Shown here piece after piece: positions 12,074 through 28,496 of a DNA stretch of 32,000 nt (position 1 is the first letter of the stretch; every line of letters begins with the position of its first letter). The position numbers and the translations under genes are program-made. The notes under the pieces are model-generated. The model was not told where the DNA came from. It was given only the letters and a program-made list of their open reading frames with translations, and ran no database searches. Origin of the DNA: Halogeometricum borinquense DSM 11551 (lineage in GTDB: Archaea > Halobacteriota > Halobacteria > Halobacteriales > Haloferacaceae); the NCBI RefSeq assembly GCF_000172995.2, contig NC_014731.1, positions 120,001-152,000 of the forward strand. Direction: 5' to 3'.

Positions 12074-12167
12074 CCCGCACTGCAAATCCGACGCGAACTG
12101 AGCCGTGTTGCAATCTGATTACACGCCCCCACAAAGCGAATAACTGTTCGGCACACTCTGTACGACC

Positions 12168-13091
12168 ATGCTGGTTTCCATCCCCGTGTCCGAGGTCATG
12201 ACCGATAGTGTGGAGACGACCACACCAGAGACAACGGCTCGAGAAGCCGCCGTCAAACTGTTTGAAAAAGAGGTCGGCTCACTCGTCGTGTGCCGCAACG
12301 GTTCGCCCGTTGGCATCATAACCGAGTACGACCTCACCAAACTACTTGCCGCTGGGACCGACCTCGATACCACGTCAGTCTCCGAATTCATGTCCGATCC
12401 ACTCATCACAATCGAACACGACGCGGACATCTCGGAAGCTGCGAAGATGCTCCGAGCGAAGCAGATTGAGCACCTGCCCGTCACCGACGGCGACGAACTT
12501 GTCGGAGTGCTTGCCGCCGTTGATCTCTCGTACTATCTGCCGCAAATCTCCCGTCCGGAACCGTCCGCAAAGCCGGAACAGGAGGCAAAGTACGTGGTCC
12601 ATCCCGAAACGGCGTTCGAGGAACCCGAATGGGAGTTCGAGTGCCGGTGCATCACTCGCGGTCACATCGTTGTCGGCGATGTCGCGGAGTTTTCGAAGAC
12701 GATAAGCGAAGAAGACGTCGAGCGATTTGCGGCCAGCAGTGGCGACACGAACCGACTTCACCTCAGCGACGAGTACGCCAAACAAACCCGGTTCGGGAAA
12801 CGTATCGCCCACGGAACGCTCGTAGCAGGACTTATCAGTGCTGCACTCGCGCGACTCCCCGGCTTGACAATCTATCTCTCACAAGAGCTGACCTTCCACG
12901 CTCCCGTCGAAATCGGCAGTCGCGTCACGGCAGTCTGTGAGGTCATCGAAGACCTCGGTCGAGACCGGTACAGGCTAACGACCGACGTCTACACTGACGG
13001 TGAGACACACGCTATTGAGGGAGAGGCTGTCGTCCTGATCGACGACCTTCCTGACACCGTAGACGTGGAGGTCGAGGAGGTCGCTGACTGA
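12168..13091 (+). CDS. CBS-pair domain fused to a MaoC-like (hotdog-fold) dehydratase domain
   Basis: The N-terminal half has two CBS-like repeats ('VSEVMTDSVETTTPETTAREAA...GSLVV', 'VSEFMSDPLITIEHDADISEAAKML...HLPV'). The C-terminal half carries 'SGDTNRLHLSDEYAKQTRFGKRIAHGTL', which is typical of MaoC dehydratases. Confidence 0.88.
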   Translation: MLVSIPVSEVMTDSVETTTPETTAREAAVKLFEKEVGSLVVCRNGSPVGIITEYDLTKLLAAGTDLDTTSVSEFMSDPLITIEHDADISEAAKMLRAKQIEHLPVTDGDELVGVLAAVDLSYYLPQISRPEPSAKPEQEAKYVVHPETAFEEPEWEFECRCITRGHIVVGDVAEFSKTISEEDVERFAASSGDTNRLHLSDEYAKQTRFGKRIAHGTLVAGLISAALARLPGLTIYLSQELTFHAPVEIGSRVTAVCEVIEDLGRDRYRLTTDVYTDGETHAIEGEAVVLIDDLPDTVDVEVEEVAD

Positions 13092-13281
13092 CGGACCGAC
13101 TCTTGGATAGCGCTGTCCTGTCGTAGCGGCGTTTTGGAAAGTCGGTCAGAGATACTCAGAAACGTCTGCTGGGGCGTACTCAAATCACGTAAATGGACTG
13201 GGGACATAGCTATTCCGGGCTTGTGTGCTAAGTGTTCACATCACCCATACCATCATTAGGGGGTATGCCAATCATCAACGT

Positions 13282-14364
13282 ATGGAGAGAGATGTCAATA
13301 GACGCCGGTTTCTCGGTGCATCAACCCTTCTCATCGGTGCACTTGCCGGTTGCCCCGGTGGGCAGCCCGAAGAAACGCCGGCGACAACGCCGTCACCGTC
13401 ACCCGAGGAGACGCCGACAGCGACACCAACACCCGAAGAGCCAATGGCAGAAATGGGAGCGGAGGTAACAGTTAGACAGGAATCGGGGAAAACAGTGTAC
13501 TGGGTTCTTCCGGGGGAGCGCCGGCTCAGCCCCACCGTATTCGGCACCCCAGATAATCCACGGTTCGGTGCCGACCTTCTCGAGTTCCGAATCGAACAGG
13601 CAAAGCAGTTACCGGAACCGCTCAGTAATGCGATTCCGCAGTTACTACAGGACTTGCCGTCTCTGGTGGCCGTACCAGAGCAAGCGCGAGAGCCAGTTGA
13701 CAGCCCGATTGCTCACGAGAAGTTGACAGAGCCGACGCTATTCAGCGACAACGCACAGATTACCAGTGGGGAGTTCGAGGTGACCTATAAGGACCAACGA
13801 CCGTACGACCGTCCCGGAGCACCGGGCGACACGCCGGACGAGGCGGACTTGACGGCAACCTTCACCGACCCGGCAGAGAACGAATACGAACTGCAACTCG
13901 ATCACATCGTACAGCCACCGATTCCGGGGTACGAAACCGGCGGTGGCGTAATGACCGGTGCTTGGCATCACGGTGTGACCGGGACGGGATCACCGTTGAT
14001 GCCGAAACTATTCGCGTACGGAGCGTTCTGGGGGGTCGGAAACGTACTCGTCAACGGTGAGGTAGCCACCGAAGACGGGTTCAGAGTGATACATTTCATG
14101 ACCACACAGACCGTCCGCGACCAAGACTACCGACTCGCCCTCGATGAGGAGTTACCGCTTCCAGCTGAGAGTACTATTGCAGGGCGTGCCCATCATACCC
14201 ACGGGGTAGTGCTTCCGATCAGACCAACACCGGATGGGCCCGTGTTCGATCCAGTTCCAACCGCGTTCGAACTTCCAAACGGTAACCCGCAGCCGTTCAT
14301 CCACGCCATGTGGGAACAAGAAGAACTCGTTAATTCACCATTTAAACAGGAGATGTCCGGGTGA
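13282..14364 (+). CDS. Tat-lipoprotein of unknown function
   Basis: The ATG at 13282 gives 'MERDVNRRRFLGASTLLIGALAGC', a twin-arginine signal plus lipobox Cys. This is followed by the Thr/Pro/Glu linker 'ETPATTPSPSPEETPTATPTPEEP'. The body contains 'GAWHHGVTG' and 'GRAHHTHG'. I recognise no domain. Confidence 0.75.
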   Translation: MERDVNRRRFLGASTLLIGALAGCPGGQPEETPATTPSPSPEETPTATPTPEEPMAEMGAEVTVRQESGKTVYWVLPGERRLSPTVFGTPDNPRFGADLLEFRIEQAKQLPEPLSNAIPQLLQDLPSLVAVPEQAREPVDSPIAHEKLTEPTLFSDNAQITSGEFEVTYKDQRPYDRPGAPGDTPDEADLTATFTDPAENEYELQLDHIVQPPIPGYETGGGVMTGAWHHGVTGTGSPLMPKLFAYGAFWGVGNVLVNGEVATEDGFRVIHFMTTQTVRDQDYRLALDEELPLPAESTIAGRAHHTHGVVLPIRPTPDGPVFDPVPTAFELPNGNPQPFIHAMWEQEELVNSPFKQEMSG

Positions 14365-14435
14365 CAGCGAAGTCAGATCGCACCAAGGTACTGTATGATA
14401 ACATCAAAACCGATCTGGAGCCAGCGAGTATACCA

Positions 14436-14969
14436 ATGCAACTCAGTCGGCGAAACGTTCTCGGACTGAGCGGCGTCGCACTCGGCGTTCTCGCCGGATG
14501 TACCGCACCGTCAGAGGAGACGCCCGGCGAATCGCCAACCGACACGCCGACGTCGTCGCCGACAGCGACGCCGTCACCGACTACAGATGCCACCCCGAGT
14601 CCAACCCAAACACCAACCGCGACTCCAACTCCGAACGCGCTCGACGGCGAAATAACCGTTACCGGATCAGAGTGGGTACTCGCTCCCGACGCGTTTCAAG
14701 CGACGGTCGGTCAAGAACTGACCATCCACTTCGAGAACGTCGGAGAGGTCGCACACAACCTTACCGTTGGAGAATTCCCGGCCGATGAACGAACGGTCGC
14801 CGATCAGGACGAAGAAGGGTCGTTCATAGTCAAGACAGACACGATACAGCCAGGAAAGACCACTTCCGTTACGTTCACCCCTACATCAACGGGGACGTTC
14901 CCCTACTGGTGTGATGTCGCAGGCCATCGGGAAGCCGGGATGGTCGGAGAAATGACAGTGGTAGAGTGA
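14436..14969 (+). CDS. Halocyanin-like type-1 copper protein (cupredoxin), Tat-lipoprotein
   Basis: The ATG at 14436 gives 'MQLSRRNVLGLSGVALGVLAGC' (Tat signal plus lipobox), followed by a long Thr/Pro/Ser linker. The cupredoxin ligand set is 'VAHN' ... 'YWCDVAGHREAGMVGEMTV' (His, Cys, His, Met). Confidence 0.88.
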   Translation: MQLSRRNVLGLSGVALGVLAGCTAPSEETPGESPTDTPTSSPTATPSPTTDATPSPTQTPTATPTPNALDGEITVTGSEWVLAPDAFQATVGQELTIHFENVGEVAHNLTVGEFPADERTVADQDEEGSFIVKTDTIQPGKTTSVTFTPTSTGTFPYWCDVAGHREAGMVGEMTVVE

Positions 14970-15127
14970 AGACCCACGGCTTTCACTGGGAGGCGACTCC
15001 CGTCGTTTCAACTGGTGATGGCTGAGCGGTGATGTCGGTACACCGATCAAAAATAAGGGTTCGGCCCGCGGCCTTACAGTAGAGACCGTCACAGGGACAA
15101 TCCGGCACGCGAAGGCCGAGAGACTGA

Positions 15128-16672
15128 TTACTCGCCGTTCGCCTCTCCGTCGTGGGAGAGCATCCGTTCGAGCATCTCGATCTCATCGTTGTCCAGCTCA
15201 TCGAGATCCATATCCGCGAGGTCATCGAGGTCGTCCGCACCGGTCTCGGTGCCGAGTTCGATGATCTCATCGCGGGTCAGGTCGTCGAGGAACGCTCCGA
15301 CCTCGATGTCCTCGTGCTCGTCTCGTTCGAGATCGACGGTCTCGCCGTCAGACTCCAACTCAAGCCCGTGGGTCTCGACTTCAACCGCATCGCCGCGCTG
15401 TTCGATTTCGTGCTCGTCTGTCTCGAATTCGACCTCCTCGTCGTCGTTCTCGAACTCGACGTCGTCCTCGTGATCTTCGACCTCTAGGTCGTCATCGTGC
15501 TGTTCGATTTCGTGCTCGTCCGTCTCGAACTCGACATCGTCCCCGCCATCCTCGCTTTCGAAGTCGATTCCGTCCTCGTGATCTTCGACATCAACGCTGT
15601 CATCGTCCTGTTCGATGTCGTGATCCTCGGTCTCGAACTCGAGGCGGTTACCATCGTTCTCGAAATCGATGTCGTCGATTTCGACTTCGAGAGCGTCCTC
15701 GATCTGCTCGATTTCGCCGCCGTCGAATTCGATGTCTGCCATCTCGTCGGTTACTTCTAAGTCAACCGTGCCAGTGGCGTCTTCGAAGTCGAGGCGGTCA
15801 CCGTCGTTCTCGAAGTCGAGACCATTTTCGTCTTCGACTTCGGCGTCGTCGCCCTCCTGTTCGACCTCGGTACCGTCTGCTTCAACGTCAACCTCGTCTT
15901 GCTTGCCGAGGTTCTCGAAATGGAAGCCGGCCTTCTCGACTTCGAGTTTCTTGCCGTCGTGTTCGATTTCGTGTTCGTCGGTCTCGATTTCGACCTCGCC
16001 GTGATCGCGTTCGACATCGACGTCATCGTTCTCGAACTCAAGGTCGCTGGCGTCGTCCTCGAACTTGTTGCCGCCGCGCTCGTATTCGACCTCGTCCGTT
16101 TCGACTTCGACGCTCTCGCCGCGCTGTTCGATCTCGTTGTCTTCGAACTCAACGTCAACTACGTCGCCGCCGTCGTCGCTCTCGAAGTCGAGACCGTCCT
16201 CGTGGTCTTCGACCTCTAGGTCGTCATCGTCCTGTTCAATCTCGTGGTCACCGGACTTTGCTTCGACCTCGTCCTCGTCGTTTTCGAAGTCGAGTTCAGC
16301 TTCGTCGTCCTCGACCGCTACGTCCTCGTCGTTCTGTTCGATATCCAAGCCGTCAAACTCGACATCGACCTCGTCATCGCCCTCGTTGGACTCGAAGTCG
16401 AGATCCTCCTCGTCGTCCTCTACTTCGACATCGTCGCCGTGCTGTTCTATTTCTCCGTCCTCGGTTTCGACCTCTACGTCACGGCTTGCATCGCTCTCGT
16501 GGCTATTCACGACCATGTCGTGACCACTCGCAAGACCGATATCGAGCGGGTCTGTTGCTACTTCAGAGCTGACAGCATCCCCCGGGACCGCGACCGCTAC
16601 CGGCGTCGCTGTGCCGACAAGCAGGACGACCACGAGGAACGTGATCAGCGCGAATCGATTACTTTGTTTCAT
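15128..16672 (-). CDS. Secreted hyper-acidic strand-turn repeat protein, type A copy 1
   Basis: ORF 15128..16723(-). The ATG at 16672 gives the Sec-like signal 'MKQSNRFALITFLVVVLLVGTATPVAVAVPG'. About 10-11 super-repeats follow, such as 'VDVEFEDNEIEQRGESVEVETDEVEYE' and 'VEFETDEHEIEQHDDDLEVEDHEDDVEFENDDEE'. I counted 65 D/E in one 119-residue stretch. The non-repeat C-terminal tail is 'FLDDLTRDEIIELGTETGADDLDDLADMDLDELDNDEIEMLERML'. Confidence 0.8.
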   Translation of the reverse strand: MKQSNRFALITFLVVVLLVGTATPVAVAVPGDAVSSEVATDPLDIGLASGHDMVVNSHESDASRDVEVETEDGEIEQHGDDVEVEDDEEDLDFESNEGDDEVDVEFDGLDIEQNDEDVAVEDDEAELDFENDEDEVEAKSGDHEIEQDDDDLEVEDHEDGLDFESDDGGDVVDVEFEDNEIEQRGESVEVETDEVEYERGGNKFEDDASDLEFENDDVDVERDHGEVEIETDEHEIEHDGKKLEVEKAGFHFENLGKQDEVDVEADGTEVEQEGDDAEVEDENGLDFENDGDRLDFEDATGTVDLEVTDEMADIEFDGGEIEQIEDALEVEIDDIDFENDGNRLEFETEDHDIEQDDDSVDVEDHEDGIDFESEDGGDDVEFETDEHEIEQHDDDLEVEDHEDDVEFENDDEEVEFETDEHEIEQRGDAVEVETHGLELESDGETVDLERDEHEDIEVGAFLDDLTRDEIIELGTETGADDLDDLADMDLDELDNDEIEMLERMLSHDGEANGE

Positions 16673-16861
16673 ACTCGTGTTGTTGCTATGTCCGATCACT
16701 GCGACCGCGAAGCAATGGAGCACAGTGTTGAACCGGGGATCTCGCCCGGTGGCAGCGTAACTGGCGAGAAAAGTGAGGGGGCGCTATCTCAGCTCTCGCT
16801 ACGAGAGCCACGTCGTACTCACTGTCCCGGAAATTCGGTAGTACGTTTGGGTCCGCCGTGA

Positions 16862-18265
16862 TTATGGGCTGCCCTCGCTGTCGTCATCGGTAAGCATACG
16901 TTCGAGCATGTTGACCTCGTTGTCGTTGAGATCCTCGAGATCCATGTCCGCGAGGTCATCGAGGTCGTCCGCACCGGTCTCGGTGCCGAGTTCGATGATC
17001 TCATCGCGGGTCAGATCGTCGAGGAACGCTTCGACTTCTGTGTCGTCGTGATCATCGCGTTCGAGGTCAATGCTTTCGCCGTCGGATTCGAGATCGAGGC
17101 CACCGTCTTTCTCGACATCGAGGTTATCGCCGCTGTGCTCGATGTCGTGGTCGTCGGTTTCCAGTTCCGTCTCGTCGCCGTCGTTCTCGAACTCGAAGTC
17201 GTCGTCGTGGTCTTCGACATCGACATCGTTACCGTCTTGTTCGATGTCGCGGTCGTCATCCTCGAATTCGACCTCCTCACCGTCGTTCTCGAAGTCAATC
17301 CCATCGTCGGTGTCGACTTCGAAGTCGTCATCGTCTAACTCGATGTCAGTGGCGTCGTTCCGGAAGTCGATGCCGTTCCGGTCGTTCTCGAACTCGAACT
17401 CCTCGCCCTCAACATCGGCGTCACCACCTCTATGTTCGATATCGTGCTCGTCGTCGGCCTCGAACTCGTGGTCGTCGCCGTCGCTCTCTAAGTCGAGGTC
17501 GTTGTCATCATCCTCGACTTCGAGGTCGTCGCCACGCTGTTCGATCTCGCGCTCGTCGGTCTCGACGTCGATATCGTCACCGTCGAGATCGATGTCAATC
17601 CCGCCGCTACCGTCGAACTCGATATCGAGACCGCCGTCGTTCTCGAATTCGAGGTCGGATAGCTCAACGTCCGCCTCGTCGCCTCGTTTCTCGATCTCGG
17701 TCTCGTCGTGTTCGACGTCGAGGTCGTCGCCTTCAGCTTCGTAGTCGAGGTCGTGACCGTCGGTGTCGTCTTCGACCTCAAGACGGTCGCCATCCTGTTC
17801 GATTTCGGCCTCGCCGGTTTCGACGTCGACGCGGTCACCGTCGTCGTCAGCCTCGAAGTCGAGGTCGTTCTCCTCATCCTCAACTTCGACTTCGTCGTCG
17901 CGCTGTTCGATCTCGTGGTCATCTGTTTCGACATCGACATCGTCACCGCCGTCGCGAGACTCGAATTCGAAGTCGTCCTCGTCATCTTCGACTTCAAGGT
18001 CATCGCCGTCCTGTTCGAGGTCTAAGTCCTCGAACTCGACATCAGCCTCGTCGTCGTCGGCGTTAGACTCGAAGTCGAGGTCGTCATCATCATCCTCGAT
18101 TTCGGCTTCGTCGCCGCTGTGTTCAATTTCGCCGTCTTCGGTGTCAATGTCGACTTCGTTGTCCTGGTGATCAGCAGCGACCGGCATCGCGGCACCGGCA
18201 GTGATCATACCGACCATCAGGAACAGTATCAGTACTAATCGAAATGTGTCTTTCATGGCCTTCAT
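16862..18265 (-). CDS. Secreted hyper-acidic strand-turn repeat protein, type B copy 1
   Basis: ORF 16862..18352(-). ATGs at 18265 and 18256 give 'MKAMKDTFRLVLILFLMVGMITAGAAMPVAADH', a Sec-like signal. It has the same repeat grammar and carries the same C-terminal tail as the adjacent A1 gene. Confidence 0.8.
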   Translation of the reverse strand: MKAMKDTFRLVLILFLMVGMITAGAAMPVAADHQDNEVDIDTEDGEIEHSGDEAEIEDDDDDLDFESNADDDEADVEFEDLDLEQDGDDLEVEDDEDDFEFESRDGGDDVDVETDDHEIEQRDDEVEVEDEENDLDFEADDDGDRVDVETGEAEIEQDGDRLEVEDDTDGHDLDYEAEGDDLDVEHDETEIEKRGDEADVELSDLEFENDGGLDIEFDGSGGIDIDLDGDDIDVETDEREIEQRGDDLEVEDDDNDLDLESDGDDHEFEADDEHDIEHRGGDADVEGEEFEFENDRNGIDFRNDATDIELDDDDFEVDTDDGIDFENDGEEVEFEDDDRDIEQDGNDVDVEDHDDDFEFENDGDETELETDDHDIEHSGDNLDVEKDGGLDLESDGESIDLERDDHDDTEVEAFLDDLTRDEIIELGTETGADDLDDLADMDLEDLNDNEVNMLERMLTDDDSEGSP

Positions 18266-18806
18266 CTCGTCGTCTATCACCCCACAAGTTAGGACAGAAT
18301 CGGCGAATCTATGCAAGGACAGAAACTTCGAACCTGTCCCGACTGTGGGCATCTAACTGTAGGGATTAGGTATATATAATATTATTATAACTAATAGGTT
18401 CCTGAGTAAAACGGAGTTCATACCATGAGTGTGCGAGCATAGGATGAAGTTCCATATACCAAGTCACCGTGCGACCAGTCCCCCATGGTTCGCAGGCCGA
18501 AACCTGTTGTATCCGAATACACAGGCCGAAAAGCGCCACTCCTCCCACACCTGAAGACGCAAGTATGCGTTCACACTATAAGACGCGGGGATGCGCTCGC
18601 GCTATGTATCACTACGAAGCGGCTCTGACCATTACACAGTACCGGATAAGAGCCGGATCATCCGAGTCGGTAACAGGGTTACGGTTCCCTCAACCAACAC
18701 TCATGTACTTGGCTGTTGTATACAGAGGTGAACGAAAAACAGCCGATTACGGGCAGCTCAAGTCCCGTATCCCCTCGGCAGAGACAACCAAAACTACCAC
18801 TCAACA

Positions 18807-19136
18807 ATGACAGTTTACCGCGCATGTCCGTACTGCGATGAGGTATTTCAGATCGGGTCAGAGGAGGACAACCCACTCGTAGACCATATCCGCGAGTTTC
18901 ATACCGTTACTGAAGACGCTCCGTTGACGTCGTTTTCGCAGGATGAACTCCAGCGGCGACTCCACGAGGCCAGTACCGTCGAGGAGACGAAAGCACTGAT
19001 GCTCGCTATCCTCTACAAACGACATATTCCCGTTCGGACCCTCTCGACACGGTTTGGGATTCCAGAAGAGATGATTCGAGGATGGTTCGACCGTCTCGCG
19101 TCCGGATGGGATTCCAAATCGAAGAATACGCAATAA
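18807..19136 (+). CDS. Small protein with an N-terminal CxxC...HxxxxH zinc-finger-like motif and a possible C-terminal HTH
   Basis: 'CPYCDEVFQIGSEEDNPLVDHIREFH' is a C2H2-like spacing. The later segment 'IPVRTLSTRFGIPEEMIRGWFDRL' looks helix-turn-helix-like. Confidence 0.55.
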   Translation: MTVYRACPYCDEVFQIGSEEDNPLVDHIREFHTVTEDAPLTSFSQDELQRRLHEASTVEETKALMLAILYKRHIPVRTLSTRFGIPEEMIRGWFDRLASGWDSKSKNTQ

Positions 19137-19310
19137 ACGGAGCGTGGTATTGGTTGCAACCATTCTGAGCGTACTGCGGTCGGCTGTCCGTGCGGGCAGC
19201 TACGTGCGCGTTACCAATCTCTAGAAGAGAGATACAATGTCATCAGTTGGTGAAATCGCTGACAAAACCGATATACGTTCGAGCCTGCTAGACAGTATGG
19301 AGCATTCCTG

Positions 19311-20105
19311 ATGTCCACGAACAGACGGCTTGACCCCGACGACGTGGTTGACGCCGTATCGCGTCGCGCGGAGATTATGCAACGTCTGTTAGACGGACCT
19401 CAGTACAACCGAGATATTCGCGAATCAGTCGGAGTATCACGCTCGACCGCGTACAAAGCGATTAGCGAGCTCGAAGAGATGGGACTTGCCCGGAGGGGCA
19501 GTGAGGGGTATGAACTCACAGCGACCGGACGCCTGTTGTTCGAGGAGTATCGTCGGTTCCGAAACCGGGTCGAAGCCGTCTGTCATCCGGCCCAGTTACT
19601 CTCCATTCTACCGGCGGACATCGACATCAACTTCGAAGTTCTCGAAGGTGCTGAAGTGTCCTTCGCGGAGCGATATGCACCAAACCGTCCGGTCACAGAG
19701 ATAGCGGACGTGATCCGCGACGCTGACGTGTTACGGGGAACCGGACCGGTCGTCCTCCCAAGCTACGTCGAACTGTTCCACGATCAGTTCGTCGCTGGCG
19801 AACTCGAAGCCGAGTTGGTTTTCGAACGGGCCGCGTTCGACCATCTCTCTACGGACTACGCTGACGAGTTCTCCGAGGCCGTCGAAAGCGGCGCTCTCGA
19901 AGTCCGAGTGACGGACGAAGAGCTCCCGTTCGGCTTACTGATGATCGAAAAGCCGACTCAGAAAGTCGGTGTCATCGTGTACGACCGCGGGGGAGAACTC
20001 AGAGGATTCATTCTGAACGACTCCGAAAATGCGGTCGAGTGGGGCGAAAAAAAGTGGGAACGGTACCGAGAGGCGGCGGCCCCGCTTACGCCCGGAGATA
20101 ACTAA
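19311..20105 (+). CDS. Winged-HTH transcriptional regulator with a large C-terminal domain (haloarchaeal ArsR/FilR1-like architecture)
   Basis: 'RRAEIMQRLLDGPQYNRDIRESVGVSRSTAYKAISELEEMGLARRGSEGYELTATGRLL' is a wHTH. A ~180-aa acidic C-terminal domain follows, as in many haloarchaeal regulators of this type. Confidence 0.85.
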   Translation: MSTNRRLDPDDVVDAVSRRAEIMQRLLDGPQYNRDIRESVGVSRSTAYKAISELEEMGLARRGSEGYELTATGRLLFEEYRRFRNRVEAVCHPAQLLSILPADIDINFEVLEGAEVSFAERYAPNRPVTEIADVIRDADVLRGTGPVVLPSYVELFHDQFVAGELEAELVFERAAFDHLSTDYADEFSEAVESGALEVRVTDEELPFGLLMIEKPTQKVGVIVYDRGGELRGFILNDSENAVEWGEKKWERYREAAAPLTPGDN

Positions 20106-20330
20106 TTCGCGGCACTGCACGGCATTTCAGACCGTCAATCGATCACGACTCATTCGATAACTCAGCAGTAAGTCAGTAGCGACTACCGACCGGTTCAGCG
20201 GGCAGTAAGGAGCTGATTCATCGGTAGCCAAAGAGTTATTTATACGCTCCGAGTAGTTTAACACGAACGGCTGTCGACTGGCGTTCCAGCGCTCGTGTGA
20301 CGGTCACGAACCAGACACAATCCTATCACG

Positions 20331-21233
20331 ATGACCGACTTTGACGGGCCGATGACATCGGACCTCACCCAAGAGGCGTACGACGTCTACCTCGACCTCG
20401 CCCAAGAGGTCACAGCACACGAAAACGACGTTGTTGAAACAGTTCCAGACTTTTTCGACATCGGTTCCGTACACGAGTGTCTGCAGTTTCCACTGAATCT
20501 GTGGGAATCCGGGCGGAAGCCGATGCGGACGGTTCCTGCGCTTGTCGCATATGAGCCGTTGCTCGACGGCGACGAGGCCGACACAGTGGCACAGATTCTG
20601 GTCGGCCTCGACGTGTTTGTGATGATGCTCGACGAGTTCATCGATACCGCCCGAACGGACAGGCGTTTCCGAACCCAACTCGCGGTCAACGTCGCGTTTT
20701 CGAGTTTGCTGTCGTTCGCCACCATTCCGGAGTCGGCCAAGGAGACGGTCGTCGATGCGCTCACTGCGTACCTCGTCGAAGCCTCCCGAATCCCGGCCGT
20801 CGAACGGGAGGTCGCGCGTGCCCTCACAAACACGACATCGAGCGAGCAGGCGATGGACCTGATCCGATTCGCGTACGGCTTTCGTGCGCGGGACATCGCC
20901 GTGTTCGGTGCCCTACCGGCGCTCGTCTCTGACGTTGACAGAGAAGTGGCCGACCGAATCGAGAGCGACCTCCAGACTTACCGGGCGCACTGTCTCCTCT
21001 ACGACGATATCAGAGACATCGAGCAAGACCGGCGAAACGGGATCGAGACGCCCGTCATGTGGCTGTTAGACCGTCACCGCGACCCCGAGGTAGTTGCGGC
21101 ACGGATTGCGTCGGTCTACCGGTCGTTCGAGTATTCGGATGCGGACTACACGGACGTACTCCGCGAGATGGAACCAACGAGTGATGATCCCATCGACGAA
21201 CTGACATCGGCGATGCCGTCACAGTCCGAGTAA
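20331..21233 (+). CDS. Hypothetical protein, possible class-I isoprenoid (polyprenyl/terpenoid) synthase-like fold
   Basis: 300-aa acidic ORF with two Asp-rich motifs about 124 residues apart. They are 'MMLDEFID' (D-E-x-x-D, aa 101-105) and 'LLYDDIRDIEQDRRNG' (DDxxD, aa 225-229). This resembles the FARM/SARM motifs of trans-prenyl synthases. The function call is inference only. Confidence 0.6.
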   Translation: MTDFDGPMTSDLTQEAYDVYLDLAQEVTAHENDVVETVPDFFDIGSVHECLQFPLNLWESGRKPMRTVPALVAYEPLLDGDEADTVAQILVGLDVFVMMLDEFIDTARTDRRFRTQLAVNVAFSSLLSFATIPESAKETVVDALTAYLVEASRIPAVEREVARALTNTTSSEQAMDLIRFAYGFRARDIAVFGALPALVSDVDREVADRIESDLQTYRAHCLLYDDIRDIEQDRRNGIETPVMWLLDRHRDPEVVAARIASVYRSFEYSDADYTDVLREMEPTSDDPIDELTSAMPSQSE

Positions 21234-21268
21234 ACCATATCCGTCAGCGAACACGGTACGAAACCGCT

Positions 21269-21454
21269 TCACCGACGCATCCACTTGGCACGACAGCGGT
21301 CGCTGCAGAAACTATGAATCACTGTTTCTCCGTCGCGAGTTTGGCTAGCTTTCGTTGGATGCCATTCGGAAACGTCGATGATTGAGCCACAGGCGGCACA
21401 GCGGTCAATCTGCCGTCCCGGGAAGTGCGACGTGAGTTGTTCTCTCATAGCCAT
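21269..21454 (-). CDS. Small FCS/TRASH-type zinc-finger protein (CxxC ... FCSxxC)
   Basis: The ATG at 21454 gives 'MAMREQLTSHFPGRQIDRCAACGSIIDVSEWHPTKASQTRDGETVIHSFCSDRCRAKWMRR'. Its four Cys residues are arranged as in zf-FCS/TRASH metal-binding modules. The longer ORF extending to 21544 looks like a spurious extension. Confidence 0.6.
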   Translation of the reverse strand: MAMREQLTSHFPGRQIDRCAACGSIIDVSEWHPTKASQTRDGETVIHSFCSDRCRAKWMRR

Positions 21455-21672
21455 GGGCCTATCTAGTGATAGGGGCCGAGTGGTGGTCACTTTCCCGGGT
21501 CGGACCTGTGCACACGGAAAGACGCCTGTACAGCCGTAACACATGTTTCGAGACTCGAACCATGGGTATCGATTGAAACACCTGCCAAACGAACCAGCAA
21601 CAAACGTATCATCTGGTCCAATCTGCCGGCAACATCGGGAAGAAGTGATATCCGCGCCGCTATTGCGGGCCG

Positions 21673-21722
21673 GTCTCGTCTCGTCTCGTCTTGTCTTGTC
21701 TCGTCTCGTCTTATCTTGTCTT
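21673..21722. repeat. Pentanucleotide microsatellite (GTCTY)x10
   Basis: Read directly as gtctc gtctc gtctc gtctt gtctt gtctc gtctc gtctt atctt gtctt. The last unit overlaps the TAA stop (21721-21723) of the His-acidic protein gene on the minus strand. Confidence 0.95.
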
Positions 21723-22497
21723 ACCCGATTTCGATGTCGATACCGTCGCCGTCGTGGTCGATTTCGATGTCGTCACCCTCGACATCGATTTCGTCGTCGC
21801 CGTGGTCGAGTTCGACCTCACCGTCGCCTTCGACTTCGAGGTCGTCATCGTCGAATTCGACTTCAGCGTCGCCATCGACCTCTATCTCGTCGTCACCGTG
21901 ATCGACCTCGACTCCATCGTCACCCTCGGCTTCGAAGTCGTCACCATCGTGTTCGACGTGAGCATCGTCTCCTTCGGCTTCGATCTCATCATCGCCGTGA
22001 TCGACCTCAACCCCGTCGTCGCTCCCAACTTCTAATTCATCCTCATCGTGTTCCACGTGAGCGTCGTCACCCGCAGCGTCAATCTCGTCGTCACCGTGGT
22101 CAACGTGGATATCGTCACCCTCGGCTTCGAGGTCGTCCTCATCGTGTTCCACGTGAGCGTCGTCATCGACCTCTATCTCGTCATCGCCGTGGTCGAGTTC
22201 GAGTCCATCGTCTGCCCCGACTTCGATTTCGTCATCATCGTGGTCAACATGGACATCATCACCCTCGGCTTCGACGTGATCATCGCCGAAGTCGAGTTCA
22301 ACTTCCTCATCGTCGTCATCGTCGAAGTCTATATCAACATCATCATCGTCAAAGTCGTCGTCGAACTCATCCTCATCGTCGAAGTGGTCGAAGTCGGTAC
22401 TCTCGGCACTCGCTACCCCGACACCACCGGCTAACGCGACGACGACCAACAGGCTAACTACGACTACCGCTCCAGCTGTGAATGCGTGTCGTCTCAT
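21721..22497 (-). CDS. Secreted His-decorated hyper-acidic strand-turn repeat protein (type C)
   Basis: The signal is 'MRRHAFTAGAVVVVSLLVVVALAGGVGVASA'. The mature part consists only of D, E, G, V, I, L, F, A, H, S and T, with no Lys or Arg. It has about 22 octad-like units, for example 'GVEVDHGDD EIEAEGDD AHVEHDEDD LEAEGDD'. There are about 17 His residues, falling on every second unit. Confidence 0.8.
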   Translation of the reverse strand: MRRHAFTAGAVVVVSLLVVVALAGGVGVASAESTDFDHFDDEDEFDDDFDDDDVDIDFDDDDDEEVELDFGDDHVEAEGDDVHVDHDDDEIEVGADDGLELDHGDDEIEVDDDAHVEHDEDDLEAEGDDIHVDHGDDEIDAAGDDAHVEHDEDELEVGSDDGVEVDHGDDEIEAEGDDAHVEHDGDDFEAEGDDGVEVDHGDDEIEVDGDAEVEFDDDDLEVEGDGEVELDHGDDEIDVEGDDIEIDHDGDGIDIEIG

Positions 22498-23052
22498 GAG
22501 TTTGGTCCGTCAGCCGATACGCTCGACTAACGGGTTATAATAACAGAGCCAGACACGTCGCTTTATCGTGGAAATCATGTGTACCAAACGAACACAGACC
22601 TCGAATACAAACCCATGATTACCTTCTCGAACCATCAAACGCCGTCCAATGGTTCAGACACAATCGAAAATGAGAGATTGACGATAGATGAGTTGCCGAC
22701 GACCGCAACGAGCCACCCGCCAGTGACCAGATCGATAGTGATCTGTCTGTCGGCGGCGGTTGCACGCCACCGACTCGGTCATCGGCCCGACAATGGACCT
22801 GCGTCCGGTGTCGTTCGGCTTCGCGGCTGAGCCCTCACGCTGTTCGGTGCCGTCGCGTCGGACCCGAGTATTGCACTCGATGCGTCTCCAGTGGTCGCAT
22901 CACCAACGCAGGCTGGAGACGGAGCTACTTGGATGGAGGTGTGGCGTGAACTGGAAGGGATCCCGAACGGACGAGACGAAGTAGGTCGTCGCCCGTCCCA
23001 CCGTCACACTCCGTGCTGTCAACACCGAACACGCCGGTGAGTGATTGGCTGT

Positions 23053-24441
23053 CTAGTCGTCCTCGTTATTGTCCTCCTGTTCGACGTCAACGTTCTCACC
23101 ATCGGATTCGACCTCAAGCCCATCCTCGTCTTCGACATCAAGTACCTCGTCCTCCTGCTCGATGTCGTGCTTGTCCGTCTCGAACTCAAGGCCGTTCCGG
23201 TCGTTCTCGAACTCCGTGTCGTCATCGTGATCTTCGACATCGACATCGTCATCGCGCTGCTCGATGTCGTGTTCGTCAGTCTCGAACTCGACATCGTCGC
23301 CACTACCCTCGCTCTCGAAGTCGATTCCGTCCTCGTCGTCTTCGACCTCGAGGTCGTCACCATCCTGCTCGATGTCGTGCTCGTCGGTTTCGAGGTCGGT
23401 CATCTCGTCGTCCGATTCGAGATCGGTGTCGCCGGCTTCGGCGTCCAGCGCGTCGCCGTCCTGCTCGATCTCGCCCCCATCGAATTCGACGTCAACCGCC
23501 TCGTCCGTCGCCTCTAAATCGACCGTCTCAGCGGCGTCTTCGAAGTCGAGGCGGTCACCGTCGTTCTCGAAGTCGAGACCATTTTCGTCTTCGACTTCGG
23601 CGTCGTCGCCCTCTTGCTCGACCTCGGTACCGTCTGCTTCAACGTCAACCTCGTCTTGCTCGCCGATGTTCTCGAAGTGGAAGCCAGCCTTCTCGACTTC
23701 GAGTTCCTTGCCGTCGTGTTCGATTTCGTGCTCGTCGGTCTCGATTTCGACCTCGCCGTGATCGCGTTCGACATCGACGTCATCGTTCTCGAATTCGAGG
23801 TCGTCAGCGTCGTCCTCGAACTTGTTGCCGCCGCGCTCGTATTCGACCTCGTCCGTTTCGACCTCGGCGCTCTCGCCGCGCTGCTCGATGTCGGCGTCCT
23901 CAGTCTCGACGTCTAGCTCGTCGCCACCGTCCTCGGACTCGAAGTCGAGACCGGCCTCGTGGTCTTCGACTTCGGTTCCGTCGTCATCCTGTTCGATGTC
24001 GTGGCCGTCCGATTCGGCCTCAACCTCGTCCTCGTCGCTCTCGAAATCCAGGTCCGCCTCATCGTCCTCCACATCGAGCGAGTCATCGTCCTGCTCGATT
24101 TCCTGCTCGCCGCTGTCGATATCGACCGTGTCATCATCCTCGTTGGACTCGAAGTCGAGATCCTCTTCCTCGTCCTCTACCTCTGCATCATCGCCATCGT
24201 GTTCGATTTCGCCGTCCTCGGTCTCGACCTCAACGTCTCCACTCTCCTCGTTATCTTCGTCGTCTGCGGTATCGACGACTGTCTCGTGGTCGCCGACGAG
24301 GTCGGCACCGGACGGGTTCGATACAGATGCAGTGCTGGTAATGCCCACCGTGCCCGCGGCCGCGGCAGGGAGTGCTACACTAGCAACTAACCCGACCGCG
24401 AGGAACGTAACCAGCGTGAGTGTCTGTATTCGGTCCATCAT
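23053..24441 (-). CDS. Secreted hyper-acidic strand-turn repeat protein, type A copy 2
   Basis: ORF 23053..24525(-). ATGs at 24441 and 24438 give 'MMDRIQTLTLVTFLAVGLVASVALPAAAAG', a Sec-like signal. The central ~115 aa are almost identical to A1 ('RGES.EVETDEVEYERGGNKFEDDA.DLEFENDDVDVERDHGEVEIETDEHEIEHDGK.LEVEKAGFHFEN...'). It ends within the repeats and lacks the C-terminal tail domain. Confidence 0.8.
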   Translation of the reverse strand: MMDRIQTLTLVTFLAVGLVASVALPAAAAGTVGITSTASVSNPSGADLVGDHETVVDTADDEDNEESGDVEVETEDGEIEHDGDDAEVEDEEEDLDFESNEDDDTVDIDSGEQEIEQDDDSLDVEDDEADLDFESDEDEVEAESDGHDIEQDDDGTEVEDHEAGLDFESEDGGDELDVETEDADIEQRGESAEVETDEVEYERGGNKFEDDADDLEFENDDVDVERDHGEVEIETDEHEIEHDGKELEVEKAGFHFENIGEQDEVDVEADGTEVEQEGDDAEVEDENGLDFENDGDRLDFEDAAETVDLEATDEAVDVEFDGGEIEQDGDALDAEAGDTDLESDDEMTDLETDEHDIEQDGDDLEVEDDEDGIDFESEGSGDDVEFETDEHDIEQRDDDVDVEDHDDDTEFENDRNGLEFETDKHDIEQEDEVLDVEDEDGLEVESDGENVDVEQEDNNEDD

Positions 24442-24618
24442 CGTATGTTGAATTATTCGAGCCCTATACCCCTGTAATAAGTGGGAGTTGAACCGGGCGG
24501 CCACGCTCTCGGTACCGAGCGACAAAATGGAGGTGACTTCAGGTTTGCCCCCAGTTGTGGGATCGCACGATACCGAGCGTCCCGAACCGGGCAGCGGGCT
24601 CAGCTCCGGGGCGTCCGA

Positions 24619-26013
24619 TTAGCCGTCAGCGCTGAGATAGCTCTCCAGCAGGTTAAGGGTCTCTCGGTCGAGATCCTCGATCTCCTCGTCAGCGAGTTCT
24701 TCGTAGTCGTCCGCGTCGGACTGGCTGATGAGATTATTCACCTGCGAGGTGGAGATGTCATCGAGGTACTGTCCGGTCTCGGCGTGGCTGTGCTCGCTCC
24801 GTTCGAGATCGACGGTCTCGCCGTCAGATTCGAGGTCAACACCGCCATCTTTTTCGACATCGAGTCGGTCGCCGCTCTGCTCGATGTCGTGGTCGTCGTT
24901 CTCGAACTCAAGTTCGTTCTCGTCGTTCTCGAACTCGACGTCGTCCTCGTGGTTTTCGACATCGACATCGTCACCGCGCTGTTCGATGTCGTGGTCGTCG
25001 TCCTCGAACTCGGTCTCTTCGTTGTCTGACTCGAAGTCCACTCCATCGTCGGTGTCGACTTCGAGTTCATCGTCCTCTTGTTCGACGTCAGTGGCGTCGT
25101 TCCGGAAGTCGATGCCGTTCCGGTCGTTCTCGAACTCGAACTCCTCGCCCTCGACGTCGGCGTCACTACCTGTGTGTTCGATTTCGTGCTCGTCGTCGGC
25201 CTCGAACTCGTGGTCGTCGCCGTCGCTCTCTAGGTCGAGGTTATTCCGCTCGTTTTCGACCTCCAGGTCGTCGCCGTCCTGTTCGATCTCCTGATCGTCG
25301 GTATCGATGTCGACATCGTCATTGTCGAGGTCGATGTCGATGTCGCCAGCGTCCTCAGACTCGAAGTCGAGGTCGCCGTTTTCGTTCTCGTATTCGACGT
25401 TGTCGCTCTCGACCTCAGCGTCGTCGCCGTGTTTCTCGATTTCGGCCTCGTCGTGTTCGACGTCGAGGTCGTCGTCCTCAGCCTCGTAGTCGAGGTCGTG
25501 ACCGTCAGTATCGTCCTCTACCTCAAGACGATTACCGGATTGTTCGATTTCGGCCTCGCCGGTTTCAACATCGACCTCGTCGTCGTCTTCCTCGGCCTCA
25601 AAGTCGAGGTCGTTCTCGTCGTCTTCGACTTCGGCGACGCCGTCATGTTTCTCAATCTCTTGGTCGTCCGTTTCGACATCAACATCGTCGCCACCGTCCT
25701 CGCTCTCGAAGTCGAGGTCGTTGTCTTCGTCCTCCACCTCAAGGTCGTCGTTGTCCTGCTCGATTTCGTTACCGTCGGATTCGATATCGGCAGTATCCTC
25801 GTCCTCGTTTGTCTCAGCGTCGAGGTCGTTTTCGTCGTCCTCTACCTCTGCGTCGTCGCCGTCGTGTTCGATTTCACCGTCTTCGGTGTCGACGTCGACT
25901 TTATCATTTCCTCCGTGGCTGGCGGCCACCGGCAGCACAGCACCGCCGGCGATCATGCCAACCGCGAGGAACACGATCAGTACGAGTCGGAATTTCTTAT
26001 TCATAGTTGACAT
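24619..26013 (-). CDS. Secreted hyper-acidic strand-turn repeat protein, type B copy 2
   Basis: ORF 24619..26073(-). ATGs at 26013 and 26004 give 'MSTMNKKFRLVLIVFLAVGMIAGGAVLPVAASH'. It is colinear with B1 throughout. Its C-terminal tail is a divergent version, 'YLDDISTSQVNNLISQSDADDYEELADEEIEDLDRETLNLLESYL'. Confidence 0.8.
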   Translation of the reverse strand: MSTMNKKFRLVLIVFLAVGMIAGGAVLPVAASHGGNDKVDVDTEDGEIEHDGDDAEVEDDENDLDAETNEDEDTADIESDGNEIEQDNDDLEVEDEDNDLDFESEDGGDDVDVETDDQEIEKHDGVAEVEDDENDLDFEAEEDDDEVDVETGEAEIEQSGNRLEVEDDTDGHDLDYEAEDDDLDVEHDEAEIEKHGDDAEVESDNVEYENENGDLDFESEDAGDIDIDLDNDDVDIDTDDQEIEQDGDDLEVENERNNLDLESDGDDHEFEADDEHEIEHTGSDADVEGEEFEFENDRNGIDFRNDATDVEQEDDELEVDTDDGVDFESDNEETEFEDDDHDIEQRGDDVDVENHEDDVEFENDENELEFENDDHDIEQSGDRLDVEKDGGVDLESDGETVDLERSEHSHAETGQYLDDISTSQVNNLISQSDADDYEELADEEIEDLDRETLNLLESYLSADG

Positions 26014-26195: not shown

Positions 26196-26237
26196 GGTAC
26201 AACAGTTGCATAGTATGGTACAATAGTTGCATAGTAT
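26196..26237. repeat. Tandem 21-bp direct repeat x2 (GGTACAAYAGTTGCATAGTAT)
   Basis: The units at 26196-26216 and 26217-26237 differ at one position (C/T). Confidence 0.9.
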
Positions 26238-26277
26238 ATTTCTCCGCGCGGACAGCCGCGCGCAGGTAGACAAATAG

Positions 26278-26333
26278 ATTGCAAAACGGGAATTACAAAA
26301 CGGGATTACAAAACGAGTGGATTGTAAAACGGA
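26278..26333. repeat. Four tandem ~13-bp units ATTRYAAAACGRG
   Basis: The units read attgcaaaacggg(a) / attacaaaacggg / attacaaaacgag(tgg) / attgtaaaacgga. The array lies in the spacer between the HxlR 3' end and the B2 5' end. Confidence 0.85.
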
Positions 26334-26855: not shown

Positions 26856-27248
26856 GGCTAATCAAAAAAACATACGAGGTACATCTCCATAGAACGGGTG
26901 GCAATGTGGCTAGCGGTACACCTACCTACTCACTTAGACCGCCGGACCGCAGACAACCAAATCCACACGGTCGAGTCCTTTACTGACAAGTGCAACGGGA
27001 GCGTAGAAGCAACGAGCGCCCCATACGGAACGTTGGGAGTCTCTTTACAAGGTTACGGATGTAACGGGGAGTTACCTGAAGGAAACCACTTGCTGTACTC
27101 TTTCGACGTTACCCGCCCGTTCGCTGCTCAAGTTAAAATATCTACCCCCTCACTGGCTGGTTACATACTTTCGGCAAAGTTAACACAGAGTTATATCTCT
27201 CTCGCCACAAGTAGCGACTGTAGGGGACCTCACACGGGGGAACCAAGA

Positions 27249-27569
27249 ATGTCTACCGGAACCAACACCGCACCCGCATCCAAATTCGAGTTCACGTTAG
27301 AGGAACAATGGGCGATACACCAAGCGTTCCTCGACTACGTTGAGGTGGCAATGCGAGATGACACCGATCTGCCAAAGCCAACCGTCGAAATCGTGATCCT
27401 AGAAAAGCTCGAAGACGGTAACTTCTCGTTTACTGCATTCGAACTGGAGCGACTTCGCTACGAGTGTGACCACCACGCAGAAAGCGAATACACCCCCGAG
27501 ATTGATCGCGAACCCGCACGGACTGTTGTCGAGAAAATCGACCGCCAGTCCGGTGACTCGGGCTGCTGA
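27249..27569 (+). CDS. Hypothetical acidic 106-aa protein
   Basis: This is the internal ATG of ORF 26898..27569. From 'MSTGTNTAPASKFEFTLEEQWAIHQAFLDYVEVAMRDDTDLPKP...' onward the composition becomes halophile-like. The 117 upstream codons look non-coding. Confidence 0.5.
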   Translation: MSTGTNTAPASKFEFTLEEQWAIHQAFLDYVEVAMRDDTDLPKPTVEIVILEKLEDGNFSFTAFELERLRYECDHHAESEYTPEIDREPARTVVEKIDRQSGDSGC

Positions 27570-28103
27570 TCGATATCAACTGCGCTCTTCTTCCCTCATC
27601 CCAGCACAGAATCCATATTTTCGGACAGTTCACGAAATAGATCGTCTCTCCTCACGTGAATTTGCAATTTTTCTTCGGCTTCAAGCGTCTGCCCATATTT
27701 GCAATACTCGAGATTGTGCGGTATAGAGACACTAAACGAGAACGGTTTGAACAGAACCGAAAAGCAAGGCTACTCACTTAGTCCGACAGTACGATATTGA
27801 CATGCTTGAGGTCCACAAAAGAGACAATAGAAAAGGGCCGGCTCAGTGAGTCAGGGTGTCAGTTGGATGGGGTGCATGACGAGTCCAGCCGACCCAATTC
27901 ACATCTCGTGAGCCAGCTAAATGATTATTTGGTTACAATTTGGTAATGAAGTGACCAGCAGTAACTACGTCAGAGGAGGTAGGTCGTAACCGAAACGCCG
28001 TGCTAGATACGATAGCGACCGCGCAGTCTGGTGGGAGAGTCAGTTCACTCACGATCTGAAAGCGGAGATGGCGGGACAACACGATAGTTCGGGTCTCGGC
28101 TGG

Positions 28104-28496
28104 TCAGACAATCGAATCAGTCTGATCCTCGGGTTCGCTGAGGTGTTCCAATCCCCAATCACGCATCGCGTAGATGATTGGCGAGAGTGAATCGCCATGG
28201 TGAGTGAGTGAATACTGAACACGGAACGGCCGTTCGCTGATGATCTCACGGTTGACGATCTGTTTTTCTTCGAGGTCTTCCAAACTGTCTGAGAGTACTT
28301 TGCTCGAGATACCGTCAACGTCCTCTTTGAGTTCGTTGAACCCGCTCGGCCCGTGTTCAAGGAGACGGTGAATTATCACCGGGTGCCACTTCTTTCCGAT
28401 GAGTGTCGCCGTCGTCGTCACTGGACACCAATCCTCTCCTGCACACCAGACCGGTATCTTCTCGATTGGATCTTCATGCCCGCCTGTGTCAGACAT
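28104..28496 (-). CDS. HxlR-family transcriptional regulator
   Basis: 'IPVWCAGEDWCPVTTTATLIGKKWHPVIIHRLLEHGPSGFNELKEDVDGISSKVLSDSLEDLEEKQIVNREIISERPFRVQYSLTHHG' matches the HxlR pattern. Confidence 0.9.
   Translation of the reverse strand: MSDTGGHEDPIEKIPVWCAGEDWCPVTTTATLIGKKWHPVIIHRLLEHGPSGFNELKEDVDGISSKVLSDSLEDLEEKQIVNREIISERPFRVQYSLTHHGDSLSPIIYAMRDWGLEHLSEPEDQTDSIV

Follow-up and report, generated by a model that had tools for sequence, protein, structure and literature searches.

Haloarchaea as a rule export mainly pre-folded substrates of the twin-arginine translocation (Tat) pathway. Among extracellular proteins elsewhere, the Asp-rich β-sheet matrix proteins of biominerals alternate hydrophobic and acidic residues and present a face that forms a carboxylate lattice. 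Synthetic peptides that alternate hydrophobic residues with Glu, for example (LE)8, form β-sheet fibres and gel with Ca2+ (PMC6473879). The G-box is a single-layer β-sheet of ~20 antiparallel strands that lacks a hydrophobic core and is open to solvent on either face (PMC3776556). Here we analyse a 32,000-nucleotide stretch of the Halogeometricum borinquense DSM 11551 genome (NC_014731.1, positions 120,001–152,000; ‘the window’) that carries six genes, A to F, for secreted acidic repeat proteins. We conclude that A–F are a real, conserved and uncharacterised haloarchaeal protein family, and that the β-helix model proposed for them earlier should be replaced by a predicted giant single-layer β-meander.

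The six genes all open with ATG and all lie on the minus strand (Table 1). A preliminary description of this DNA had listed five of them as a cluster and F as an outlier, and every coordinate and strand was reproduced. Judged by their identities (~69% for A/D, ~68% for B/E and ~45% for A/B), A, B, D and E fall into two types, A-type and B-type, with two copies of each. F is 100% identical to the H. borinquense DSM 11551 hypothetical protein C499_06905. Asp and Glu together make up 43.4% of A, 47.3% of B, 47.7% of C, 46.1% of D, 44.6% of E and 25.1% of F, compared with 14–20% in nine neighbouring genes; once the signal sequence is removed, the mature chains of A–E are 46–54% acidic. The earlier count of 65 acidic residues within 119 exactly matches the densest window of A, and the accompanying remark that Lys and Arg are nearly absent also stands (0.8–4.1% in A–E). 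A, B, D and E carry net charges between –192 and –205, whereas C has one of –121. Hydrophobic residues account for ~20–24% of the chain and follow a regular i, i+2 pattern.

The periodicity of this pattern is visible in both protein and DNA. Hydrophobic autocorrelation peaks at lag 9, with more peaks at 16–18, 25–27 and 33–36, and Tandem Repeats Finder returned DNA periods of 27, 54 and 96–108 nt. The pattern h-[DE]-h-[DE] (h, hydrophobic) occurs 34–41 times in each of A, B, D and E versus 5.6–7.7 times in 2000 composition-preserving shuffles (standard deviation ~2.5, maximum 19). The basic unit is a 9-residue h-[DE]-h-E strand/turn element, and such units form super-repeats of 32–36 residues, present ~10–12 times in each of these four proteins, close to the 10–13 copies first estimated. 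Aligning 47 canonical super-repeats drawn from the window genes and their orthologues gave a strongly position-specific consensus, VDVETDDHEIEQDDDDLEVEDDEDDLDFESDD(GG)DE, which by segments reads VDVE-TDDH-EIEQ-DDDD-LEVE-DDEDD-LDFE-SDD(GG)DE. Several columns are near-invariant (I10 93%, E11 100%, Q12 80%, V19 91%, E20 93%, F28 87%, E29 100%), and the choice of Asp versus Glu is fixed by position. Together, these two features point to a structural constraint that goes beyond mere charge. Super-repeats vary between 25 and 65 residues and contain 4 or 6 strands; one indel between paralogues measures 17 residues, approximately one hairpin. The chains had been described as made almost entirely of repeat units. 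The repeats themselves were verified, but A, B and E additionally end in a non-repeat tail of ~55 residues.

None of A–F matched Pfam, NCBIfam, PADLOC or PHROGs above any curated threshold (a single marginal PHROGs match had an E-value of 0.009, and PADLOC returned none), and a sequence search of the PDB gave only E ≥ 0.2, in line with the initial impression that no named family applies. An exhaustive phmmer search with B against 1.84 billion representative proteins produced 13 matches, with no E-value under 1e-30. Of these, 11 come from repeat proteins that are not related, most of them vertebrate and AHNAK-like, and we rejected them as convergent (21–26% identity, Lys-rich). The other two are a genuine distant relative, WP_254546313 of Halomarina pelagica, and a 107-aa fragment, P0005. 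The open reading frame (ORF) of P0005 contains a 117-nt piece 93% identical to gene B (17879–17995), located in GCA_003226235.1 (QKMU01000001.1, 10100–10211); the genes of the surrounding 3-Mb contig are heavily fragmented, and the piece may be a remnant or a chimeric assembly. Searches of the protein collection with F and with the Halomarina protein P0013 gave only self-matches. Two pattern searches were discarded: the DNA pattern for TEDGEIE[HQ] gave 46 chance matches in genome contigs, a Haladaptatus succinate dehydrogenase among them, and FENDGxxhxFE gave 17 chance matches in metagenome contigs. No related locus was found across the genome contig collection, though this collection misses the known orthologues in Haloferax mediterranei described below: two genome-contig scans that should have caught them did not, and the same orthologues, present in RefSeq, are missing from the collection of 15 billion proteins. 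Negative results in these collections therefore say nothing about rarity. A literature search found no publication mentioning these proteins, and neither the Rfam nor the tRNA scan of the window returned a match. A DNA-mimic, anti-restriction or defence class was also considered and rejected, given the signal peptides, the lack of a PADLOC match and the marginal PHROGs match; the nucleic-acid-mimic decoy suggested earlier fits poorly with exported proteins. We take A–E to belong to an undescribed haloarchaeal family.

Megablast against PLSDB located a block ~75–83% identical to the window, partly rearranged, on the H. mediterranei megaplasmid pHM500. It carries orthologues of all six genes (Table 1), each labelled ‘hypothetical protein’ in RefSeq (WP_004060675, WP_049917531, WP_231513001, WP_004060684, WP_049917533 and WP_014732854). 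In both genomes the pairs B then A and E then D are maintained, with the B-type gene 177–189 nt upstream of the A-type one. We compared the window genes with these orthologues by the Nei-Gojobori method (synonymous divergence, dS, 0.75–1.1). The ratio of non-synonymous to synonymous divergence (dN/dS) is 0.09–0.21 for A–E, indistinguishable from the values of 0.075–0.22 for the flanking CBS, x379, cupredoxin, FilR1 and x300 genes, and by this measure A–E are under purifying selection. Low ratios in the minus-strand frame settle both frame and strand and rule out the overlapping plus-strand ORFs, which answers the earlier concern that another strand or frame might be the expressed one. H. pelagica has two short, distant family members, WP_254546313 and the product of an adjacent gene; the latter protein, of 232 aa, has the same four-strand super-repeat. 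The family is thus known from three haloarchaeal species in three genera; tblastn searches of the other haloarchaeal plasmids in PLSDB, including one with the 232-aa Halomarina protein, revealed no further member.

Assemblies of H. borinquense differ at these genes. The window is 100% identical to the draft contig AOHT01000021.1 apart from two small differences. In the draft (1131–2804) A is 557 aa long and has a 43-aa duplicated segment with an X at a scaffold gap, which is an assembly artefact inside the repeat. The other difference is a 34-nt stretch at window 11092–11125 that is absent from the draft and sits between two 100%-identical alignment blocks; a gene for a BAT-type regulator contains an 18-nt tandem repeat at 11092–11231. 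In a 99%-identical strain (GCA_004150395.1, RZHH01000003.1, 1377–2771) one gene of 464 aa replaces B plus A (15128–18265), and its product joins the body of B to the C-terminal tail of A. Such a chimera could be either a recombination deletion in the near-identical tail-coding DNA or an assembly collapse. Short-read assemblies do break at these genes: a Logan contig of H. borinquense (run ERR481281) ends inside A.

Each protein from A to F contains a single hydrophobic segment, located at the N-terminus. Segment and motif scans of all six found no C-terminal hydrophobic segment, PGF motif, lipobox or Cys, in agreement with the original reading of a signal sequence without C-terminal anchor, PGF-CTERM or lipobox; the features of anchored haloarchaeal surface proteins (PGF-CTERM, a C-terminal transmembrane segment, or twin arginine plus lipobox Cys) are absent. 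A–E also contain no N-glycosylation sequons. The RR motif is confined to C (MRRHAF) and F (RREWL), both of which look Tat-like. Since A, B, D and E have no twin arginine, their signals are assigned to the Sec type, and a VAA site in the signal peptide of B would suit signal peptidase I. Within the same locus, the neighbouring x379 and cupredoxin genes provide a contrast, with the RR motif and AGC lipobox of classic Tat lipoprotein signals.

The acidic tail that ends A, B and E is predicted to be helical and is missing from C and D. The A and B tails are nearly identical, which suggests gene conversion. The tail has no Pfam match at E ≤ 5, and its best PDB match has an E-value of 1.7. We also rejected an EF-hand or dockerin-type Ca2+ module for this region, as no profile matched and DxDxDG-like loops are merely sporadic. 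The H. mediterranei orthologue of C (HFX_RS18765, locus 18201–19244) has an extra ~150 aa of 16–17-aa acidic repeats, DLDEDDLDALLDHDDFD, whose resemblance to the tails of A, B and E suggests that the tail is a reusable module.

We ran AlphaFold2 on full-length B, using a four-row alignment of B and three paralogues, and on a 144-residue fragment of four super-repeats (eight alignment rows). The best full-length model has a mean predicted local distance difference test score (pLDDT) of 79.2 and a predicted template modelling score of 0.68, with pLDDT 84–94 in the repeat region across most of residues ~50–380. DSSP assigns to it ~45 strands of 5–6 residues joined by turns of 2–5 residues, followed by a helical tail. 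The fragment reaches pLDDT 85.9 and has 16 strands. Short strands joined by tight turns are thus predicted, as the ‘strand-turn repeat’ of the preliminary description implied. When searched against the PDB with Foldseek, full-length B retrieved antiparallel meanders (the CPAP G-box, OspA, WD40 blades, the teneurin YD shell and ApoB), while the fragment retrieved the TCP10/G-box of CPAP/SAS-4 with template modelling (TM) scores of 0.58–0.61, a root-mean-square deviation of ~5 Å and a probability of 1.0. Hairpin-repeat proteins again came up in a viral library. No parallel β-helix, RTX roll or pentapeptide fold was present among the best 50 Foldseek matches of either model.

Structure prediction had been suggested as a way to look for a solenoid; a meander was predicted instead, and the β-solenoid or β-roll proposed earlier gives way to a placement of both models with antiparallel hairpin meanders and single-layer sheets. 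The more specific idea that a super-repeat is one coil of a four-sided β-helix is not supported either: super-repeats span 25–65 residues with 4 or 6 strands, and no β-helix was among the best 50 Foldseek matches. Six-strand super-repeats and a hairpin-sized, 17-residue indel suit a meander better than a coil of fixed length. A pentapeptide-repeat or other four-sided β-helix was likewise rejected on the lack of an A(D/N)LXX pattern, the variable coil length and the lack of Foldseek support. The predicted fragment is itself a single-layer antiparallel β-meander, which makes it a structural analogue of the TCP10/G-box, not a member of that family.

According to these models, each exported chain is predicted to be one very long single-layer antiparallel β-meander of ~45 strands, which at ~4.8 Å per strand would give a ribbon roughly 20 nm long. 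We infer that the cross-strand neighbours V3-I10-V19-F28-V3′ would form a continuous hydrophobic ladder on one face, flanked by the rows V1-Q12-L17-S30 and T5-H8-D21-L26, which supply H, Q, S and T. The opposite face would consist of two uninterrupted, all-carboxylate rows, D2-E11-E18-E29 and E4-E9-E20-D27, and the turns are acidic as well.

Our preferred explanation, which we put forward tentatively, is that A–E are polyanionic β-ribbons that leave the cell through Sec, depend on salt or cations, bind cations and maybe pair by their hydrophobic ladders. A, B, D and E would cross the membrane unfolded through their Sec-type signals. With a net charge of about –200, a chain should be compact only where molar salt, Mg2+ and Ca2+ screen or bridge the carboxylates, i.e. 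outside the cell in brine; it would fold there, in the presence of molar Na+ and abundant Mg2+ and Ca2+. The folded ribbon would act as a high-capacity extracellular cation-binding polyanion, and ribbons would probably pair or stack via the hydrophobic ladder. Pairing of a B-type with an A-type chain is plausible, since the genes of the two types have stayed side by side. In A, B and E, the acidic tail, predicted to be helical, is a possible docking or assembly module. Candidate roles are a cation reservoir or buffer, a component of a matrix or sheath, an interfacial film, and mineral control or binding to mineral surfaces.

Several points weigh against this explanation. The five full-length models of B score 79, 74, 57, 55 and 46, so that only two of five are confident. 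The alignments behind them are very shallow and consist entirely of paralogues or internal repeats, and AlphaFold2 can over-predict regular β-structure in idealised repeats. Asp and Glu are, moreover, poor β-formers. The E-values of the Foldseek matches are weak (0.004–0.07) despite the high TM scores and probability. The register of the two faces was deduced from DSSP strings and hairpin geometry, not from model coordinates; to find a hydrophobic ladder on just one side of a monomeric single-layer sheet would be unusual, and its burial by pairing is hypothetical. If the B/A chimera is real, the A partner would be dispensable. Expression, secretion, folding and cation binding, like the function itself, are predictions from sequence and models.

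Once exported, A–E could instead be polyanions with intrinsic disorder that work as entropic bristles or counter-ion sponges in the manner of poly-γ-glutamate capsules, with the β-ribbon an artefact of AlphaFold; we consider this unlikely. It would agree with a composition of 43–48% Asp and Glu (46–54% in mature chains) and almost no Lys or Arg, with the shallow alignments, and with the three of five full-length models that fall below pLDDT 60. Yet the alternation of hydrophobic and acidic residues is strict (z > 10 versus shuffles), I10, E11, V19, E20, F28 and E29 are 87–100% conserved with fixed Asp/Glu choices, hydrophobic residues recur at ~20–24% in a regular i, i+2 pattern, and dN/dS is as low as in folded neighbours; disordered regions seldom hold such a register across genera. 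A parallel β-solenoid or β-roll with four strands per coil and Ca2+ bound in RTX-like turns, the model first proposed, shares with RTX proteins the nonapeptide period and turns rich in Asp, Gly and Asn, and the DSSP pattern by itself (6-residue strands, 2–5-residue connections) is also compatible with short β-arcs. We nevertheless regard it as highly improbable: GGxGxDxUx is absent even in relaxed form, neither HemolysinCabind nor any other Pfam family matches, the best 50 Foldseek matches are all antiparallel meanders with the fragment superposing on the G-box, irregular and six-strand super-repeats and the 17-aa indel would break the register of a coil, and the signal peptide is N-terminal with no C-terminal type I secretion signal.

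An interfacial or structural material is a further alternative, in which amphipathic sheets coat hydrophobic or air-brine surfaces or build amyloid-like matrix fibres and cation binding is incidental. The predicted ribbon is indeed two-faced, with a hydrophobic ladder opposite a fully charged face, alternating hydrophobic/Glu peptides self-assemble into fibres (PMC6473879), and multiple paralogues are usual for structural proteins. This reading remains doubtful to us, as the hydrophobic stripe would be about one residue row wide and flanked by polar H, Q, S and T, and chains with a net charge of about –200 resist packing side by side if no cations bridge them. As for the possibility that the ORFs are not genes at all, but by-products of GAC/GAG-rich DNA repeats or the reverse of an expressed opposite strand, long plus-strand ORFs do exist on the same DNA, e.g. 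23013–24341 (442 aa) and 21543–22457 (304 aa). These translate to runs of Arg, Ser and Val, while the minus-strand frames show the low dN/dS given above at substantial dS, have intact orthologues with signal peptides in two other genera and are the frames annotated by RefSeq in H. mediterranei; the chance that they are not genes is close to nil.

If the predicted cation-binding β-ribbon holds, the rare single-layer β-sheet architecture of the G-box, OspA and MORN proteins would reach over twice the length known so far and an extreme charge density, and the family would offer a natural test case for the use of salt and divalent cations in halophilic protein folding. A Sec-type family would also be an exception to the prevalence of Tat export in haloarchaea. 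Five conserved paralogues under purifying selection imply a real extracellular function in hypersaline brines, with cation economy, matrix formation and mineral interaction as candidates. A bolder version, which we offer as speculation and think improbable, is that these ribbons of ~45 strands, ~20 nm and a charge of about –200 are the first natural giant single-layer β-sheet ‘nanoribbons’, in which divalent cations of the brine switch on both folding and A/B-type pairing, and whose flat carboxylate lattice templates or inhibits the growth of minerals (carbonate, gypsum, halite) or acts as an external Mg2+/Ca2+ buffer. If true, they would represent, in protein form, a counterpart to acidic exopolysaccharides and poly-γ-glutamate and, among prokaryotes, an analogue of the Asp-rich matrix proteins of biominerals. 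The simple h-D-h-E hairpin repeat may in addition interest designers of ion-binding or mineral-templating protein materials.

Table 1. Genes of the cluster, their parts and conserved neighbours in the window, with H. mediterranei orthologues
Feature	Position	Strand	Description	Orthologue	Identity	dN/dS
Gene A	15128–16672	minus	A-type paralogue of 514 aa; B, on the same strand, lies 189 nt upstream	HFX_RS18810	78%	0.14
A C-terminal tail	15131–15298	minus	near-identical to B tail; apparent recombination point in related strain			
Gene B	16862–18265	minus	hyper-acidic repeat protein of B-type, 467 aa; signal peptide at residues 1–31, repeats ~37–403, acidic helical tail (predicted) 412–467	HFX_RS18815	84%	0.11
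B signal peptide	18173–18265	minus	Sec-type, MKAMKDTFRLVLILFLMVGMITAGAAMPVAA, without RR or lipobox			
B repeat region	17057–18157	minus	~45 predicted β-strands of 5–6 residues each, 2–5-residue turns			
B C-terminal tail	16865–17032	minus	acidic, non-repeat, EAFLDDLTRDEIIELGTETGADDLDDLADMDLEDLNDNEVNMLERML..., predicted helical			
Gene C	21721–22497	minus	258 aa, His-rich (7%) shorter subfamily, 32–33-aa super-repeat, RR-containing Tat-like signal	HFX_RS18765	63%	0.09
Gene D	23053–24441	minus	second copy of the A-type, 462 aa, with E 177 nt upstream; without C-terminal tail	HFX_RS18770	71%	0.15
Gene E	24619–26013	minus	464 aa, second B-type copy, diverged C-terminal tail	HFX_RS18775	69%	0.21
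E C-terminal tail	24622–24774	minus	diverged version			
Gene F (outlier)	7155–7898	minus	247 aa, 25% D+E, xEFE strands, twin-arginine RREWL signal	HFX_RS18785	41%	
FilR1-type HTH regulator	19311–20105	plus	conserved neighbour			
x300	20331–21233	plus	300-aa protein, conserved neighbour			
DUF7576 protein	21269–21544	minus	zinc-ribbon protein, conserved neighbour			

The genomic context offers weak clues. The genes for FilR1, x300 and the DUF7576 protein lie in the same order beside C-D-E in H. mediterranei. x300 contains DDxxD-like and NSE/DTE-like acidic motifs and has a faint polyprenyl-synthase match (E 0.09); it may be a protein of terpene-synthase fold. Small helix-turn-helix (HTH) genes are located upstream of the B-type genes, and regulators of BAT type with PAS, GAF and HTH_10 domains are found nearby in all three species. 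Many haloarchaea, however, have such BAT-type regulators. E and the HTH-like gene x168 are divergent, and the DNA between them contains direct repeats at 26196–26237 (2 x 21 nt, GGTACAACAGTTGCATAGTAT) and 26277–26315 (~3 x 13 nt, GATTACAAAACGG), which could be an operator; the corresponding stretch upstream of B lacks them. Another repeat, a (GTCTC)n pentanucleotide/20-nt tandem repeat of ~8 copies, occupies 21673–21723 directly 3′ of the stop codon of C.

Transcript data from H. mediterranei use older locus tags, which we assigned by gene order starting from HFX_6433. This tag belongs to a MaoC-domain protein named in an earlier study (PMC4823750), and we equated it with the CBS/MaoC gene of the block by size, domain and position relative to HFX_6336. 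Genes up in carbon versus nitrogen starvation include HFX_6439, HFX_6440 and HFX_6454 (PMC10779274, Tables S5/S6). On this order-based mapping, HFX_6439 would be the FilR1-type regulator and HFX_6440 the x300 orthologue, and HFX_6454, an HTH gene, is possibly the gene beside the B orthologue. The acidic genes are not listed among the starvation genes in those two tables. A secretome of H. borinquense exists (PMC11566945); tryptic proteomics would struggle with the present sequences, in which tryptic sites are nearly absent.

Further elements border the cluster. The x379 gene, with no family, and the cupredoxin gene (13225–14969) overlap by 4 nt, encode Thr/Pro-rich linkers and look like a Tat lipoprotein pair; they adjoin the cluster in H. 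mediterranei too. Directly beside the A and B orthologues of that species lies HFX_RS18805 (locus 27051–29789), a 912-aa ‘BGTF surface domain’ protein with an acidic N-terminal repeat of DDGSFEFGDD type and a C-terminal transmembrane anchor. It could serve as an anchoring partner; the window has no equivalent. In H. pelagica (CP100454.1, locus 8178–16831) the two family members are flanked by an S8 peptidase on one side and PAS/GAF and BAT-HTH_10 regulators on the other, an arrangement that echoes the S8 peptidase, F and BAT regulator at window 4312–12073. The part of the H. mediterranei locus that we examined has no annotated S8 gene, and for this reason we draw no functional link to the peptidase. 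At 28702–30043 the window carries an IS6/IS240-family transposase element (ORF 29301–29987) that is 86–95% identical to copies on many Haloferax plasmids.

The H. mediterranei proteins are true orthologues (41–84% identity, in a partly syntenic block); neither these nor the Halomarina protein has been characterised or assigned to a family. The only strong phmmer matches, proteins of AHNAK/periaxin type (E down to 4e-22), share repeated h-D-h-E/h-D-h-K strand motifs with B; these are Lys-rich (14–16% Lys+Arg), cytoplasmic vertebrate giants whose 21–26% identity is driven by composition, and we read the resemblance as convergence, not homology. With RTX β-rolls A–E have in common a period of 9 residues, turns rich in Asp and Gly and, as predicted from their signals, a place outside the cell, and by functional analogy their folding plausibly needs cations met only outside the cell. 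They differ in that GGxGxDxUx has zero matches in A–F and their orthologues, even as a relaxed pattern, in a predicted fold that is antiparallel and not a parallel β-roll, and in the N-terminal signal of every member, with N-terminal Sec export in place of the C-terminal type I signal. Designed (X-Glu)n and (X-Asp)n peptides have the same hydrophobic/acidic alternation and carboxylate-lattice face, and the synthetic ones gel with Ca2+ (PMC6473879). Both these peptides and the biomineral proteins are synthetic or eukaryotic and not homologous to A–E. We know of no mineral association for these archaea. The best structural match to the predicted repeat region is the TCP10/G-box (PDB 4by2, 4mpz, 4bxr): in both, runs of tight-turned antiparallel strands make up a twisted open ribbon that has no conventional core. 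There is no sequence match to PF07202 at E ≤ 1 in Pfam, and the residues aligned by Foldseek are ~12–13% identical. The G-box belongs to intracellular eukaryotic proteins, is built of ~20 strands and is not acidic, whereas A–E are archaeal and exported, contain ~50% Asp+Glu, and are predicted to have ~45 strands and a regular hydrophobic ladder.

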